Below, one piece after another: positions 34,603 through 56,789 of a stretch of 58,383 bases of DNA (position 1 is its first letter; each line of letters opens with the position of its first letter). The stretch is from Bacillales bacterium UBA3620. GTDB taxonomy: Bacteria > Bacillota_I > Bacilli_A > RF39 > UBA660. Location: positions 1 to 58,383 of the forward strand of contig DFLL01000040.1 in the NCBI GenBank assembly GCA_002375205.1, given 5' to 3'. The translations under genes were made by a program, and so were the position numbers. The notes under the pieces are model-generated. The model did not search any database. It worked only from the letters and a program-made list of their open reading frames with translations, and had not been told where the DNA came from.

Positions 34603-34931
34603 TTTTTATCACCTATATTTTTTATTAGCATTAACAATTCCTTTTCTATATCAAGATACGTTAATTCTAATAATCCTTTCCTAATAATTATAACATAATC
34701 ATAACTACTTTGCATACTATTTTTATTATTATCGATAATGTTTTTTATCCTTCTTTTTATTTTGTTTCTAATTACTGCTTTTCCAGTCTTCTTAGGGATT
34801 GATATTCCATATCTATTTTTATTATTGTTTTTACGATAATAGATACTGAAATTATTGCTCTTTATCTTTTTACCTTTATTTATTATTTCAGTATATTCCC
34901 TTGATGACTTTATGATATCTTCTTTCTTCAT
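34599..34931 (-). CDS. rnpA: ribonuclease P protein component
   Basis: It is basic, carries the KAVIRNKIKRRIK motif, and sits downstream of rpmH. Confidence 0.88.
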   Translation of the reverse strand: MKKEDIIKSSREYTEIINKGKKIKSNNFSIYYRKNNNKNRYGISIPKKTGKAVIRNKIKRRIKNIIDNNKNSMQSSYDYVIIIRKGLLELTYLDIEKELLMLIKNIGDKK

Positions 34932-34961
34932 ACTATAAAAAAAGAAAAAAAGAAAACAAAA

Positions 34962-35084
34962 TTATGCACATAATTTTTTTCTTTTTTTAGTTCTTCTATT
35001 CTTCAAAACATTACCTTTTACTCTTGCAAAGAAACCATGCTTTTTAGCTTTTTTTCTGTTATTAGGTTGATAAGTTCTTTTCAT
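34962..35084 (-). CDS. rpmH: 50S ribosomal protein L34, 40 aa (not in the ORF track)
   Basis: The translation is [47 protein letters not shown] lies 9 nt upstream. Confidence 0.88.
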
Positions 35085-35204
35085 AATTAAAACACCTCCA
35101 TGTCAAATGCTCTTTTATTATATAGTTTAATTTAGTTTCTGTCAATAATTTTCTAACTATTTTTTTAATTATACATTGTTCTAGGTATTGTAATCGCCAC
35201 TATT

Positions 35205-35255
35205 GTTGCACTTCATATTTAAATTAATCATAGTTGCACTTCATATTTAAATTAA
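35205..35255 (+). repeat. two exact 23-bp direct repeats GTTGCACTTCATATTTAAATTAA, 28 bp apart
   Basis: The copies are at 35205-35227 and 35233-35255. A degenerate third copy (CATATTTGACATTTTAAATTAC) overlaps the -35. Confidence 0.9.
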
Positions 35256-35260
35256 CATAT

Positions 35261-35289
35261 TTGACATTTTAAATTACATTTAATATAAT
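35261..35289 (+). promoter_or_regulatory. consensus sigma-A promoter: TTGACA, 17-nt spacer, TATAAT
   Basis: TTGACA is at 35261-35266 and TATAAT at 35284-35289, about 25 nt upstream of the ATG at 35314. Confidence 0.75.
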
Positions 35290-35313
35290 ATATGTTATTT
35301 GAGGAGAAATACT

Positions 35314-54033: not shown

Positions 54034-54606
54034 ATGAATAAAGGTGTATTTATAGTAGTATCAGGACCATCTGGAGTAGGTAAAGATACTCTCATAGATG
54101 AACTAGTAAAAGAAGAATATGGTATATATTCAGTATCGATGACCACTAGAAAAAGAAGAGAGGGTGAAGTAGAAGGAGAAGACTACTTCTATAGAGATAT
54201 TGATACTTTTGAAGATTATATTAAGAATGATAAATTCTTAGAATATGCTAAATATAATAATAACTATTATGGTACTTTAAAAGACTTTGTCTTTGATAAA
54301 ATAAATATGGGAATCAATGTCTTTGCTAATATCGACGTACAAGGTGCTCTTCAGATAAAAAAAGTATTTCCAGAAGCTGTTAGTATCTTCATTATGCCTC
54401 CATCATTTGAAGAGTTAGAAAAGAGACTTAGAAATAGAAATACTGATTCAGAAGAAGATATTATTAATAGACTCAATATTGCTAAGAATGAAATTACTTA
54501 TAAAGATAAATATGACTACACAGTTATCAACAATACTGTGGATAAAGCAGTAATAGACATTAAAAATATTATTGATAACGAAAAAAAGAAAATCAATACC
54601 GATTAG
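54034..54606 (+). CDS. gmk: guanylate kinase
   Basis: It has the P-loop [20 protein letters not shown] and YYGT motifs. Confidence 0.92.
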
Positions 54607-54626
54607 TTTGGTATTGATTATTATTT
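54591..54626 (+). terminator. hairpin overlapping the gmk stop codon
   Basis: A 10-bp stem (AATCAATACC / GGTATTGATT) with a 9-nt loop, followed by ATTATTT. Confidence 0.55.
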
Positions 54627-54682
54627 AACCACTTCGCTTCCCGAAAAGATATTTTGTTTCTCCATTGTCTTCTAGAAGAATA
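54621..54682. repeat. left arm of an imperfect inverted repeat bounding a 1.3-kb segment
   Basis: TTATTTAACCACTTCGCTTCCCGAAA compares with the reverse complement of 55905-55930, TTATTTAACCGCTTCGCTACCCAAAA. Similarity is looser further in, and the arm ends in the palindrome TCTTCTAGAAGA (54668-54679). Confidence 0.7.
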
Positions 54683-54785
54683 ACAATTAATCATAATGAA
54701 TACATAGTTCAAAAATAGATTTCCTTGAAAGTCTTAATTTTATTTATTATAAAAACCACTTTAATAATTAATTATCACAATTAAT

Positions 54786-55226
54786 TTAAAAAAACTTCAT
54801 TATAATAATTATAATAGCCAATATTACAAAAAATCTTACAATCCAATGCCTATCCTTTGAAGCCATAGCTCCTTCAGGTCTGGCATTCTTTGGATTTCTA
54901 ACATAATATAGTACTATTGACTCTGGAGGATAGTCAGAAAGAATCTGATATTTATATTTCTTACCATTACACTCATAGTTATATACACAAATTTTCTGCC
55001 TATATTCAGCACTTCTATAATCACTTTTATTAATATACGATTTCACATAATAAGCACTAACTACATGTCCAAGTTTAATTGCCTTTGCTTTTGCTTTTTC
55101 TTGCTTACCTGGAAGCATATCAAGATTTTCTCGAATAATACACCAAACAAAAGTAATTACTGCAGAAGCAAAAACATAAGGAAAATATTCCATCCAATTT
55201 TGACTAATCCATTTAAAAACATTCAT
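54786..55226 (-). CDS. hypothetical two-TM membrane protein (DUF3592-like layout)
   Basis: N- and C-terminal TM helices flank a beta-rich middle. AAAGGAGGTAAAAA precedes the ATG. Confidence 0.5.
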   Translation of the reverse strand: MNVFKWISQNWMEYFPYVFASAVITFVWCIIRENLDMLPGKQEKAKAKAIKLGHVVSAYYVKSYINKSDYRSAEYRQKICVYNYECNGKKYKYQILSDYPPESIVLYYVRNPKNARPEGAMASKDRHWIVRFFVILAIIIIIMKFF

Positions 55227-55408
55227 TTTTTACCTCCTTTTTCTATTGTAATTATATCATTTAATATTATTTTTTTCAATATGATTAAAAGAAAATCAAT
55301 ATCGATTAATTTTGATATTTATTTTATACATCTGTATGCTTTTTTGAAATTGATAAACCATTATATTTAAAGGCTTTATAAGTAAAATAAAAATATGTCT
55401 AAAATTGT

Positions 55409-55436
55409 ATTGACATAGTTATTATAAATGATATAA
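55409..55436 (+). promoter_or_regulatory. near-consensus sigma-A promoter with an extended -10: TTGACA, 16-nt spacer, TGATATAAT
   Basis: TTGACA is at 55409-55414 and TG-A-TATAAT at 55428-55436. Confidence 0.7.
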
Positions 55437-55443
55437 TGTTTGA

Positions 55444-55452
55444 TGTGGATAA
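55444..55452 (-). promoter_or_regulatory. perfect DnaA-box consensus (TTATCCACA on the minus strand) at the predicted transcription start
   Basis: TGTGGATAA begins 8 nt after the -10 hexamer. Confidence 0.6.
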
Positions 55453-55540
55453 CACTTATGGTGTTCTCTCCTCTTTTTGTAATAGAAGGGAGGGGTGATT
55501 GTATGCTGAAGAAACCAACTTGTAAAGGGGGTTTAAGTAA

Positions 55541-55618
55541 GTGGAACTTGTTTTGGCTTATGCTATAACAGTACTAATTCTTCTTGCTGTAATAAGTAAG
55601 AATAATCATACAAAATAA
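55541..55618 (+). CDS. candidate 25-aa hydrophobic peptide (type I toxin-like): (M)ELVLAYAITVLILLAVISKNNHTK
   Basis: A GTG start lies 9 nt after AAAGGGGG. The peptide is a single TM helix with a polar basic tail. It lies inside a transcript defined by a consensus promoter and long 5'/3' complementarity. An overlapping 21-codon ORF (55503-55568) has a stronger SD. Confidence 0.3.
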   Translation: MELVLAYAITVLILLAVISKNNHTK

Positions 55619-55718
55619 AAAGGGGCACCCAGGGGGTGCCTCCATATCAACTATGGAGAGAACACCTTGAAAAAATAGGTGTTATCCACATTTTTATTAT
55701 GGATAAATTTCTCTTTCC
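55613..55718 (-). ncRNA. candidate ~105-nt antisense RNA, convergent with the small-ORF transcript
   Basis: On the minus strand, TTGCTT (55748-55753), a 17-nt spacer and TATAAT (55725-55730) form a promoter. A GC-rich hairpin (55622-55643) followed by UUUUUAUUUU on the minus strand would terminate the transcript. Confidence 0.25.
55682..55690 (+). promoter_or_regulatory. perfect DnaA-box consensus TTATCCACA
   Basis: It is an exact 9-mer. A one-mismatch box (TTATCCATA on the minus strand) lies at 55698-55706. Confidence 0.6.
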
Positions 55719-55857
55719 AAATACATTATATGATTATTTTATAAAAAAAGCAAGTAGTTATACTTGTTTTTCTCATTATTGATATCTATTTTACATTTTG
55801 AGAAAGATTTATTTTACAAAATAAGAAAAAATTTATCTATCTAGTATCATATCTTGA

Positions 55858-55930
55858 TAGAAGAATTCTTCTACTAATGGGTTATGGAAAAATAACGAAG
55901 TTATTTTGGGTAGCGAAGCGGTTAAATAAA
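55858..55930. repeat. right arm of the inverted repeat
   Basis: See the left arm. It contains the 16-bp palindrome TAGAAGAATTCTTCTA (55858-55873). Confidence 0.7.
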
Positions 55931-56030
55931 TGTAAAATATTACCAAAGAATGACTATTATTTTATATCTAAATATCTTGAAAAATATATGTTTTTAGTAT
56001 ATACTTATATTAACAAAAAGGAGATAGTAT

Positions 56031-56789
56031 ATGAAGAGTAGTAGGATTATGAAAATATTCGAACAATATGTTAGAAAATATGATATGAATAATGTTAATA
56101 TTAAATCTAGATATTTTCACTCTCTTAAAGTAATGGAAATAGCTAAAGAACTTGCTACAGGTCTTGGTATATTTACTGAAGAAGAGATAGCAGTTATAGA
56201 ACTAATATCTCTATTCCATGAATTAGCTAATTTTTCTAAGACTCCTAATTATAGAATAAATGAAGATGATGATGATATTAGTGAAAGATCGCTTGATATA
56301 TTATTTAATAAAGGAATTATTAGAGATATAACGAAAGATACTACATATGATGATATTATTAAGATGGCTATATATGGTATTGATAAAAATGGATTTCCTA
56401 GAGATATTGATGAAAAAACTAAACATATTTGTGCTATTGTAAAGGATGCTCATAACTTAGATTCTTTTAGATTATTTGTTAATTATCCTTATGTAGATAC
56501 TAGAATAAGTGAGTATCCAAAAGCACTCGTTTATAATGATTTTAAGAAGTTTAAGACTATTAATAACAAGGTATGTGAAAATAATTCAGATAGTGTATTA
56601 GCACTACTTTCTAAGATGTATTCGTTTAATTATAAATATTCTTATTATTTACTTAAACAAAATGATTATGTGGCTAAGTTATTTGATATGCTTACTTTTG
56701 AGAATGATGATACAGAAAAGTTTTTTAAACAACTTACAATGGTATTAAATAACTATATTGATAAAAGGATAGGTGCTGTATATGCTTGA
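56031..56789 (+). CDS. HD-domain-like protein (degenerate HD motif)
   Basis: It has [15 protein letters not shown] and LFHELANF helices typical of HD-superfamily hydrolases. AAAGGAG precedes the ATG. Confidence 0.5.

Follow-up and report, generated by a model that had tools for sequence, protein, structure and literature searches.

A candidate type I toxin-antitoxin-like cassette from uncultured rumen Bacilli

A promoter-flanked cassette between gmk and an HD-domain gene

The contig DFLL01000040.1 of Bacillales bacterium UBA3620 (58,383 nucleotides (nt); hereafter, the window) comes from an uncultured "Bacillales/Bacilli" group of metagenome-assembled genomes with a GC content of about 26%. 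Contigs identical to the window are found in the sheep-rumen metagenomes SRR873603 and SRR873610 (PMC4158751). Between the guanylate kinase gene (gmk) and a downstream gene for an HD-domain protein lies a compact cassette, present once in the window, that we describe here as a candidate type I toxin-antitoxin-like system. In such a system, an antisense RNA silences the mRNA of a small toxic peptide. No tRNAs were found in the window.

A first-pass annotation, made from the sequence without database searches, had proposed a type I toxin-antitoxin-like module at this place. It listed a consensus promoter on the plus strand; a 25-codon open reading frame (ORF) with a GTG start, encoding a single hydrophobic helix; an overlapping 21-codon ORF with a strong Shine-Dalgarno sequence (SD); complementarity between the 5' and 3' ends of the transcript; and a convergent antisense unit with its own promoter and a GC-rich hairpin that has a U-run after it on the minus strand only. 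All five are present as described, with offsets of at most 1 nt (the plus promoter had been placed 1 nt too low). The features of the cassette, with some nearby elements, are:

55323 to 55409, either strand: upstream conserved stretch, which travels with the cassette across unrelated loci
55410 to 55437, plus strand: promoter of the presumed toxin mRNA, with TTGACA at 55410-55415, a 16-nt spacer and an extended -10 TGATATAAT at 55429-55437, matching the consensus at 12 of 12 positions
55444 to 55695, plus strand: predicted toxin mRNA of about 250 nt, its ends inferred from the promoter and a U-run, whose 5' part folds on its 3' part
55444 to 55471, plus strand: 5' arm, with block A (55444-55455), a TTAT loop and block B (55460-55471), which contains the anti-SD CUCUCC
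55488 to 55568, plus strand: leader ORF, with the SD GGGAGGGG at 55488-55495, ATG at 55503 and 21 codons (the ORF itself is 55503-55568), overlapping the toxin start
55524 to 55618, plus strand: presumed toxin ORF, with the SD AAAGGGGG at 55524-55531, GTG at 55541 and 25 codons encoding MELVLAYAITVLILLAVISKNNHTK
55607 to 55612, plus strand: CAUACA, predicted to pair with UGUAUG at 55500-55505, a stretch that includes the leader AUG
55612 to 55640, minus strand: antisense terminator, with its stem at 55640-55624 and a U-run at 55623-55612 that reaches the toxin stop codon
55612 to 55718, minus strand: predicted antisense RNA of about 105 nt with four hairpins, complementary to the last ~80 nt of the mRNA
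55655 to 55695, plus strand: 3' arm, with block B' GGAGAGAACACC, a loop, block A' GTGTTATCCACA and UUUUU
55725 to 55753, minus strand: antisense-RNA promoter, with the -35 TTGCTT at 55753-55748, a 17-nt spacer and the -10 TATAAT at 55730-55725
55444-55452 (minus), 55682-55690 (plus) and 54537-54545 (minus, in the 3' end of gmk): perfect DnaA-box 9-mers TTATCCACA; a further box with one mismatch lies at 55698-55706 (minus)

We gathered relatives via the gmk gene, via homologs of the downstream HD-domain protein, and with one metagenome scan, for a pattern taken from the most conserved stretch of the cassette. The relatives' contigs used in the comparison carry L-numbers (L004, L013, L034 and so on). 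This gave about nine distinct cassette sequences from a single narrow clade. Two of them, L034b and L032, form subfamily 2; the subfamilies are only about 74% identical overall.

The mRNA and its open reading frames

The plus-strand promoter is one of four 12/12 promoters in the window, where 0.23 would be expected from shuffled sequence. Its -35 core, TTGAC, and ATGATATAAT are invariant in nine homologs. Transcription is predicted to start at about 55443-55445.

The presumed toxin is small, with a hydrophobic helix of 16–17 residues and a short basic tail. It has 25 amino acids, or 20 in subfamily 2, and the basic tail is not conserved. The ORF proper (55541-55618) has its SD 9 nt upstream of the GTG, and both it and the leader ORF have a G-rich SD 7–9 nt upstream. 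Across the homologs, the start codon lies 8–9 nt after a conserved A(A/G)GGGGG; subfamily 1 uses GTG and subfamily 2 uses TTG, and no copy has ATG.

The pattern of substitutions indicates that the 25-codon ORF is a real coding sequence, as the first-pass annotation had it. Among all copies, the variable columns at codon positions 1, 2 and 3 number 9, 4 and 15 in the toxin frame, and this bias is absent from the other two frames. All three substitutions in the ORF of L004 are synonymous, and CGT and CGC, which are both found at one codon in L036 and L029, encode the same arginine. Subfamily 2 encodes MELVTAYALTILVIIALIKL instead of MELVLAYAITVLILLAVISKNNHTK; it keeps MELV.AYA.T and a helix with I/L/V swaps. 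Over the first 18 codons, the window and subfamily 2 share 67% nucleotide identity and 11 residues, and six of the seven other residues are I/L/V swaps.

Some copies have changes that might affect the peptide. S19C, V17G and L14R occur among strains of one species. The last of these, in L011 (L011:1092-1488), puts an arginine in the middle of the helix and may have inactivated the peptide. In L013 (L013:723-1110), a replacement of 12 nt by 10 nt (a 2-nt deletion) shifts the reading frame and destroys the toxin ORF, yet the two promoters, the two arms and the antisense gene remain intact. These variants could reflect either selection against a harmful peptide or relaxed constraint.

The leader ORF evolves differently. 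Its SD (of the GGAGG type) and its ATG are invariant in all homologs, but its product is not conserved: it has 12–21 codons, with non-synonymous changes. A 5-nt difference in subfamily 2 brings the leader ATG into frame with the helix, for a product of 31 amino acids. Because the SD and ATG are kept while the product varies, the leader looks like a coupling ORF of the mok type, by analogy with hok/sok, for which initiation would matter and the peptide would not.

The first-pass annotation had also suggested folding the transcript. A 261-nt plus-strand RNA folds at -97.9 kcal/mol (z = -8.6), and its 5' end is predicted to close on its 3' end just before UUUUU. The mRNA of the L004 ortholog has the same predicted fold-back (z = -4.8). 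A repeat search recovered the two perfect 12-nt blocks: block A, TGTGGATAACAC (55444-55455), is complementary to GTGTTATCCACA (55679-55690; inverted repeat I5, 17 nt, 94%), and block B, GGTGTTCTCTCC (55460-55471), is complementary to GGAGAGAACACC (55655-55666; inverted repeat I22, 12 nt, 100%). TTTTT (55691-55695) directly follows the 3' arm. Neither arm recurs exactly (with no mismatches) elsewhere in the 58 kb.

The 3' arm is nearly invariant across all homologs, and block B differs only by an additional T in L013 and L034a. With arms this constant, covariation is silent for or against their pairing. The predicted pairing rests on the complementary bases, 24 of which are kept although the subfamilies have diverged so far; on the folding energy; and on the placement of the arms, which sit exactly at the predicted ends of the transcript.

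RNAalifold predicts that CUCUCC of block B can pair, alternatively, with the leader SD. A second predicted helix, between CAUACA and UGUAUG (RNAalifold columns 69-74/178-183), is kept in both subfamilies with U.G wobbles. CAUACA is non-coding in subfamily 2; in subfamily 1, it lies at the end of the toxin ORF. We compared the free full-length mRNA to the same mRNA with its 3' arm blocked, by partition-function folding of seven homologs. The predicted probability that the leader SD is paired rose in all seven:

Window: 0.82 free, 0.99 with the 3' arm blocked
L004: 0.42 free, 0.61 blocked
L010: 0.28 free, 0.92 blocked
L013: 0.79 free, 0.85 blocked
L034a: 0.90 free, 1.00 blocked
L034b: 0.59 free, 0.92 blocked
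L032: 0.67 free, 1.00 blocked

Folding of the nascent 5' part shows the same closure of the leader SD. From these predicted structures, we infer that occupation of the 3' arm would drive the closure of the leader SD.

With such a stable fold (z = -8.6), the plus-strand transcript might act as an RNA, with the small ORFs secondary or incidental, so that the cassette would encode two structured RNAs, either non-coding or with a dual function. Conservation is higher for the RNA-level elements than for the tail of the peptide, CAUACA is kept even where it is non-coding, and L013 keeps all of the RNA features despite its frameshift. However, the third-position bias and the I/L/V-only replacements over 67% nucleotide identity are hard to account for unless the ORF is translated, and both SD-plus-start pairs are conserved. 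Rfam does not suggest such an RNA either: Rfam 15 has no matches in the whole window at the gathering score, and at E ≤ 10, the region 55200-56050 has chance-level matches only and no known antitoxin family. (The best match below threshold is suhB/mmgR, with 21 bits against 41 required, E = 0.09.) So we consider an RNA pair improbable. The same searches led us to reject a known antitoxin RNA or 6S RNA, the latter of which the first-pass annotation had named as an identification that would count against its proposal.

The antisense gene and the settings of the cassette

The predicted convergent antisense gene keeps its promoter and its terminator across the homologs, in line with the original prediction. 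In every homolog, the minus-strand promoter is present with an invariant -10. Its -35 is TTGCTT, TTGCAA or TTGATT, and the spacer stays at 17 nt even though the sequence of the spacer varies. A promoter scanner did not list this promoter because its -35 matches the consensus at only 3 of 6 positions.

The fold of the predicted antisense RNA has z = -4.2. In folds of six homologs, hairpin 2 and the terminator form in all six and hairpin 1 forms in five; hairpin 3 is variable. Read on the minus strand, hairpins 1 and 2 show 100% pairing in eight sequences. These pairs include one constant U.G and two lineage-specific U.G or G.U pairs, which on the plus strand would be C.A and A.C mismatches. Two further partial copies show the same T-to-C change. 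By this comparison, substitutions in the antisense hairpins are tolerated only on the minus strand. The terminator hairpin (55624-55640) is the sole terminator call in 55000-56200 and is called on the minus strand only. Its stem has a compensatory change from G-C to A-U between the subfamilies, with the minus-strand U-run kept.

The antisense RNA is predicted to end near the toxin stop codon, with at most two codons of overlap, and therefore covers the 3' arm of the mRNA and not the ORF. Because it is complementary to the 3' arm, it carries a copy of the 5' arm (block A, hairpin, block B), so that this copy and the 5' arm itself would be rivals for binding to the 3' arm. A search for pairing outside the overlap (long RNAduplex runs) gave only diffuse, uninformative duplexes. 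By eye, the loop of the terminator (ACCCCCU) is complementary to the toxin SD (AGGGGGU), but we set this aside because it amounts to only 5 bp in subfamily 2.

The cassette is a self-contained unit that varies in copy number and presence. It is found at two unrelated loci: the gmk-HD interval and an ABC-transporter locus (adjacent to rpsT in L032). At the latter, L032 has a single copy and L034 a tandem pair. Homology across these contexts spans about 430 bp, from about 55323/55342 as far as the -35 of the antisense promoter at 55753. About 70–90 nt upstream of the toxin promoter move with the cassette between loci. In this upstream stretch (within 55323-55409), a T-run comes after the palindrome ATACAnnTGTAT; a deletion in subfamily 2 removes the palindrome.

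Within the gmk-HD interval, the cassette accompanies a 146-amino-acid gene in the window, a gene of 303 or 307 amino acids in L009-12 and L004, and a 135-amino-acid gene in L029 and L036-40; in L013, it stands alone. L004, which is the same contig as L033, additionally has genes for a DUF4143 ATPase and a TOTE AEP-helicase there. The interval lacks the cassette in L005 (whose gmk is 92% identical), in L028, in L042/43 (whose HD protein is 97% identical, with a DUF3137 gene instead), and in the more distant L014-20, which have SDR and SocA_Panacea genes there. The flanking proteins of the cassette-free relatives L005, L042/43 and L028 are 92–97% identical. Several independent short-read contigs begin or break off inside the cassette (L029:1, L036-L040:1, L041:1 and L034:1), five of them at the identical base. 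Such breaks are expected if the 5' half of the cassette is repeated elsewhere in those genomes.

The interval between gmk and HD/valS (54606-56031) is a strain-variable hotspot, as seen also in L004, L005, L009, L013, L014, L017, L028, L029 and L042. Its contents range from nothing up to a TOTE AEP-primase/helicase with a DUF4143 ATPase, and include SocA_Panacea, DUF3137 and SDR genes and orphan ORFs; TOTE and SocA_Panacea are conflict genes. The 146-amino-acid ORF of the window (54786-55226, minus strand) has hydrophobic N- and C-terminal segments and is divergent from the cassette, with an 11/12 promoter at 55279-55251. It has no match in Pfam or NCBIfam, and it is not found in the relatives, where unrelated genes occupy the same place. 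We considered a three-gene module that would include a divergent upstream gene, but the genes beside the cassette are unrelated to one another between contexts, and L013 has none.

These settings also bear on whether the peptide is toxic at all. The cassette might instead be a gene for a non-toxic small membrane protein, with a regulatory or accessory role, whose expression would be adjusted by a cis-antisense RNA. The ORF does encode a hydrophobic peptide, and it is from sequence that we call it a toxin; a 12/12 promoter would suit a highly expressed small protein; and strains tolerate substitutions and a frameshift. The housekeeping small membrane proteins that have been characterised are, to our knowledge, encoded in operons alongside partner genes, while the cassette is an orphan: independent of its neighbours, variable in copy number, duplicated in tandem, and located in a hotspot with conflict genes. 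Furthermore, its mRNA invests in SD sequestration, in non-ATG starts in both subfamilies, in a leader ORF and in a fold-back, and features of this kind define type I toxin mRNAs (PMC8594479). We therefore view a non-toxic protein as unlikely, but less so than the RNA pair.

The inverted repeats raise another alternative: an element that acts as DNA, such as a cluster of DnaA boxes (both A arms are perfect TTATCCACA boxes) or an inverted-repeat element resembling a miniature inverted-repeat transposable element (MITE). Of the four perfect DnaA boxes in the 58 kb, three cluster here within 1.2 kb, along with the one-mismatch box at 55698-55706; the site is about 20 kb from a switch in GC skew; and the inverted repeats flank a multi-copy element. 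In every homolog, however, the degenerate TTAACCACA stands in place of the 5' box. Most homologs keep the 3' box, but L034b, L029 and L036 lose it, and its position is also constrained by an antisense hairpin. Conservation reaches beyond the repeats to the two promoters, which led us to reject MITE or transposon ends. A DNA-level element would also leave the coding signature and the strand-specific wobbles unexplained, and we give it very little credence.

The one chance match of the metagenome pattern, L035:1287-1452 (Ga0180082_1004016), has three perfect DnaA boxes within 166 nt; it is probably an origin or a DnaA-box cluster of an unrelated organism. In the window, GC skew and gene orientation both switch at about 34900-35300. 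To the left of the switch are rpmH (34962-35084), rnpA, yidC, jag, mnmE and mnmG, and to the right are two unassigned genes (221 and 122 amino acids), then parA and parB. Two outward-facing 12/12 promoters lie at 35117-35145 (minus) and 35261-35289 (plus). This is an origin-type neighbourhood, but it has neither dnaA/dnaN beside rpmH nor a perfect DnaA box.

Proposed regulation and comparison with known type I systems

We propose that the cassette is probably a self-contained type I toxin-antitoxin-like system, of a family that has not been described before. About nine distinct homologs back each of its structural elements at the level of sequence. The consensus promoter would produce an mRNA of about 250 nt, whose 5' blocks A and B would pair with its own 3' end. 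The leader ORF, with its strong SD and ATG, extends over the weak start codon (GTG or TTG) of the presumed toxin, a single-helix membrane peptide of 20–25 residues; in subfamily 2, the leader and the peptide ORF form one in-frame fusion. The convergent promoter would produce a four-hairpin antisense RNA of about 105 nt, ending at the minus-only terminator by the toxin stop codon and fully complementary to the 3' arm of the mRNA. When bound to the 3' arm, the antisense RNA would displace the 5' arm, and the freed CUCUCC would close the leader SD, which would block translation. The RNA duplex would be a likely substrate for RNase III. While the mRNA is being transcribed, the SD-closing hairpin of the nascent transcript would keep translation off. 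If the antisense RNA were lost, the peptide could be made and would damage the membrane.

Several observations weigh against this proposal. The peptide matches no known toxin family, in keeping with the remark of the first-pass annotation: Pfam and NCBIfam searches at E ≤ 10 with both peptides gave only a chance match to CcmD. The natural substitutions and the frameshift could reflect relaxed constraint instead of selection against toxicity. The predicted switch is weakest in the window's copy, whose leader SD should stay closed whatever the state, according to the folds. Covariation lends no support to the pairing of the arms because these hardly vary, and the pairing of block A has one mismatch and one wobble in every homolog but the window. 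The 3' end of the plus-strand transcript has no canonical terminator. By match to the consensus, the toxin promoter (12/12 plus the TG) beats the antisense promoter (whose -35 matches at only 3–4 of 6 positions); in known systems, the antitoxin promoter is usually the stronger of the pair. Finally, the comparison draws on about nine distinct sequences, all of a single narrow clade.

More tentatively, and we think this is rather less likely to be right than wrong, the cassette may represent a new Gram-positive family of type I systems with its own mechanism. In this family, the antisense RNA would mimic the 5' end of the mRNA, compete for the 3' arm, and flip the anti-SD onto the leader SD. This would join leader coupling and fold-back in the enterobacterial style to 3' antisense control in the Bacillus style. 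As a further speculation, the perfect DnaA boxes in both arms might link expression of the cassette to the state of replication.

If the cassette is confirmed as a toxin-antitoxin system, it would add a type I family for uncultured, AT-rich rumen Bacilli; we found no type I system described for them. It would also be a Gram-positive system with a 3' antisense RNA that uses a leader ORF and a 5'/3' fold-back as well. An antisense RNA that mimics the 5' end would make a compact switch, with about 360 nt between the promoters, that might be reused as an RNA device. And its presence flags the gmk-HD interval as a site that varies between strains and collects conflict and toxin-antitoxin genes. The cassette had no blastn match in phage and plasmid collections, and four pattern scans of IMG/VR (for the arms, for two back-translated peptide patterns and for the antisense core) found none, so the cassette is not common prophage cargo.

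Type I systems have mRNAs of 150–400 nt, peptides of 20–60 amino acids, SD/anti-SD pairs and 5'-3' interactions (PMC8594479). The cassette has a short mRNA (about 250 nt) for a small hydrophobic peptide of 25 or 20 amino acids with a coding signature; at the sequence level, a cis-antisense gene with its own promoter and terminator; and, in predicted folds, both sequestration of the SD and a 5'-3' interaction. Our proposal does not conflict with existing knowledge of type I systems. Because the peptide and the RNAs match no curated model, we file the cassette under the functional class only, as a new variant at the level of a family, and assign it to no named family.

In Gram-positive type I systems, the antisense RNA lies on the 3' side (PMC8594479). 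The closest likeness in arrangement is to bsrG/SR4, txpA/RatA, bsrE/SR5 and yonT/SR6 of B. subtilis, which also have convergent genes, with an antisense RNA of about 100 nt on the 3' end of the mRNA for a small hydrophobic peptide. Experiments showed that SR4 extends the sequestration of the SD on bsrG mRNA, which is followed by decay initiated by RNase III (PMC3834814, PMC6562991). In that system, contact with the 3' end of the mRNA reshapes its 5' region, and the same logic is predicted for the cassette. However, the cassette has no sequence, Rfam or Pfam relationship to these systems, its peptide is shorter (20–25 amino acids), and its antisense RNA reaches only the stop codon, while theirs overlap the ORF. 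We did not find a leader ORF, extensive 5'/3' closure or an antisense copy of the 5' arm described for them. With no match in Rfam, Pfam or NCBIfam and an antisense RNA that ends at the stop codon, the cassette does not belong with TxpA/RatA, BsrE-G-H or YonT.

Fst/RNAII (par) and SprA1/SprA1as have an antisense RNA on the 3' side that leaves the ORF uncovered (PMC8594479). They resemble the cassette in this respect, in being Gram-positive, and in having a small toxin with a hydrophobic helix and a short basic tail. But their functional pairing is outside the overlap, at the 5' translation-initiation region. Also, unlike in those families, the repeat of the cassette is inverted, so that the antisense RNA is identical to the 5' arm of the mRNA instead of complementary to it. 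No Fst-type model and no RNAII family of Rfam matches the cassette, which places it outside this group.

The hok/sok (with its mok leader ORF and fbi fold-back) and ldr/rdl systems share two other features with the cassette: a leader ORF that has a good SD and extends across the start of the toxin ORF, and a 5'-3' fold-back that keeps the full-length mRNA inert. These systems have enterobacterial hosts, in contrast to the Gram-positive host of the cassette, and Sok pairs with the 5' leader, inside the mRNA, whereas the cassette's antisense RNA targets the 3' arm. The in-frame fusion of the leader in subfamily 2 is another difference from Hok/Sok. Since the cassette has no Hok or Ldr match and its antisense gene is at the 3' end, it is not a Hok/Sok system, and the likeness is limited to the logic of a leader ORF plus fold-back.

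The cassette is also similar to aapA1/IsoA1 of Helicobacter pylori, which is reported to combine a toxin of about 30 amino acids with a long-distance 5'-3' interaction and with metastable hairpins that keep both the nascent and the full-length mRNA untranslated (PMC5416894, PMC6733600). In contrast to the antisense RNA of the cassette, IsoA1 overlaps the 5' part of its target and the ORF (PMC8594479); its host is an epsilonproteobacterium, and the two systems have no sequence relationship.

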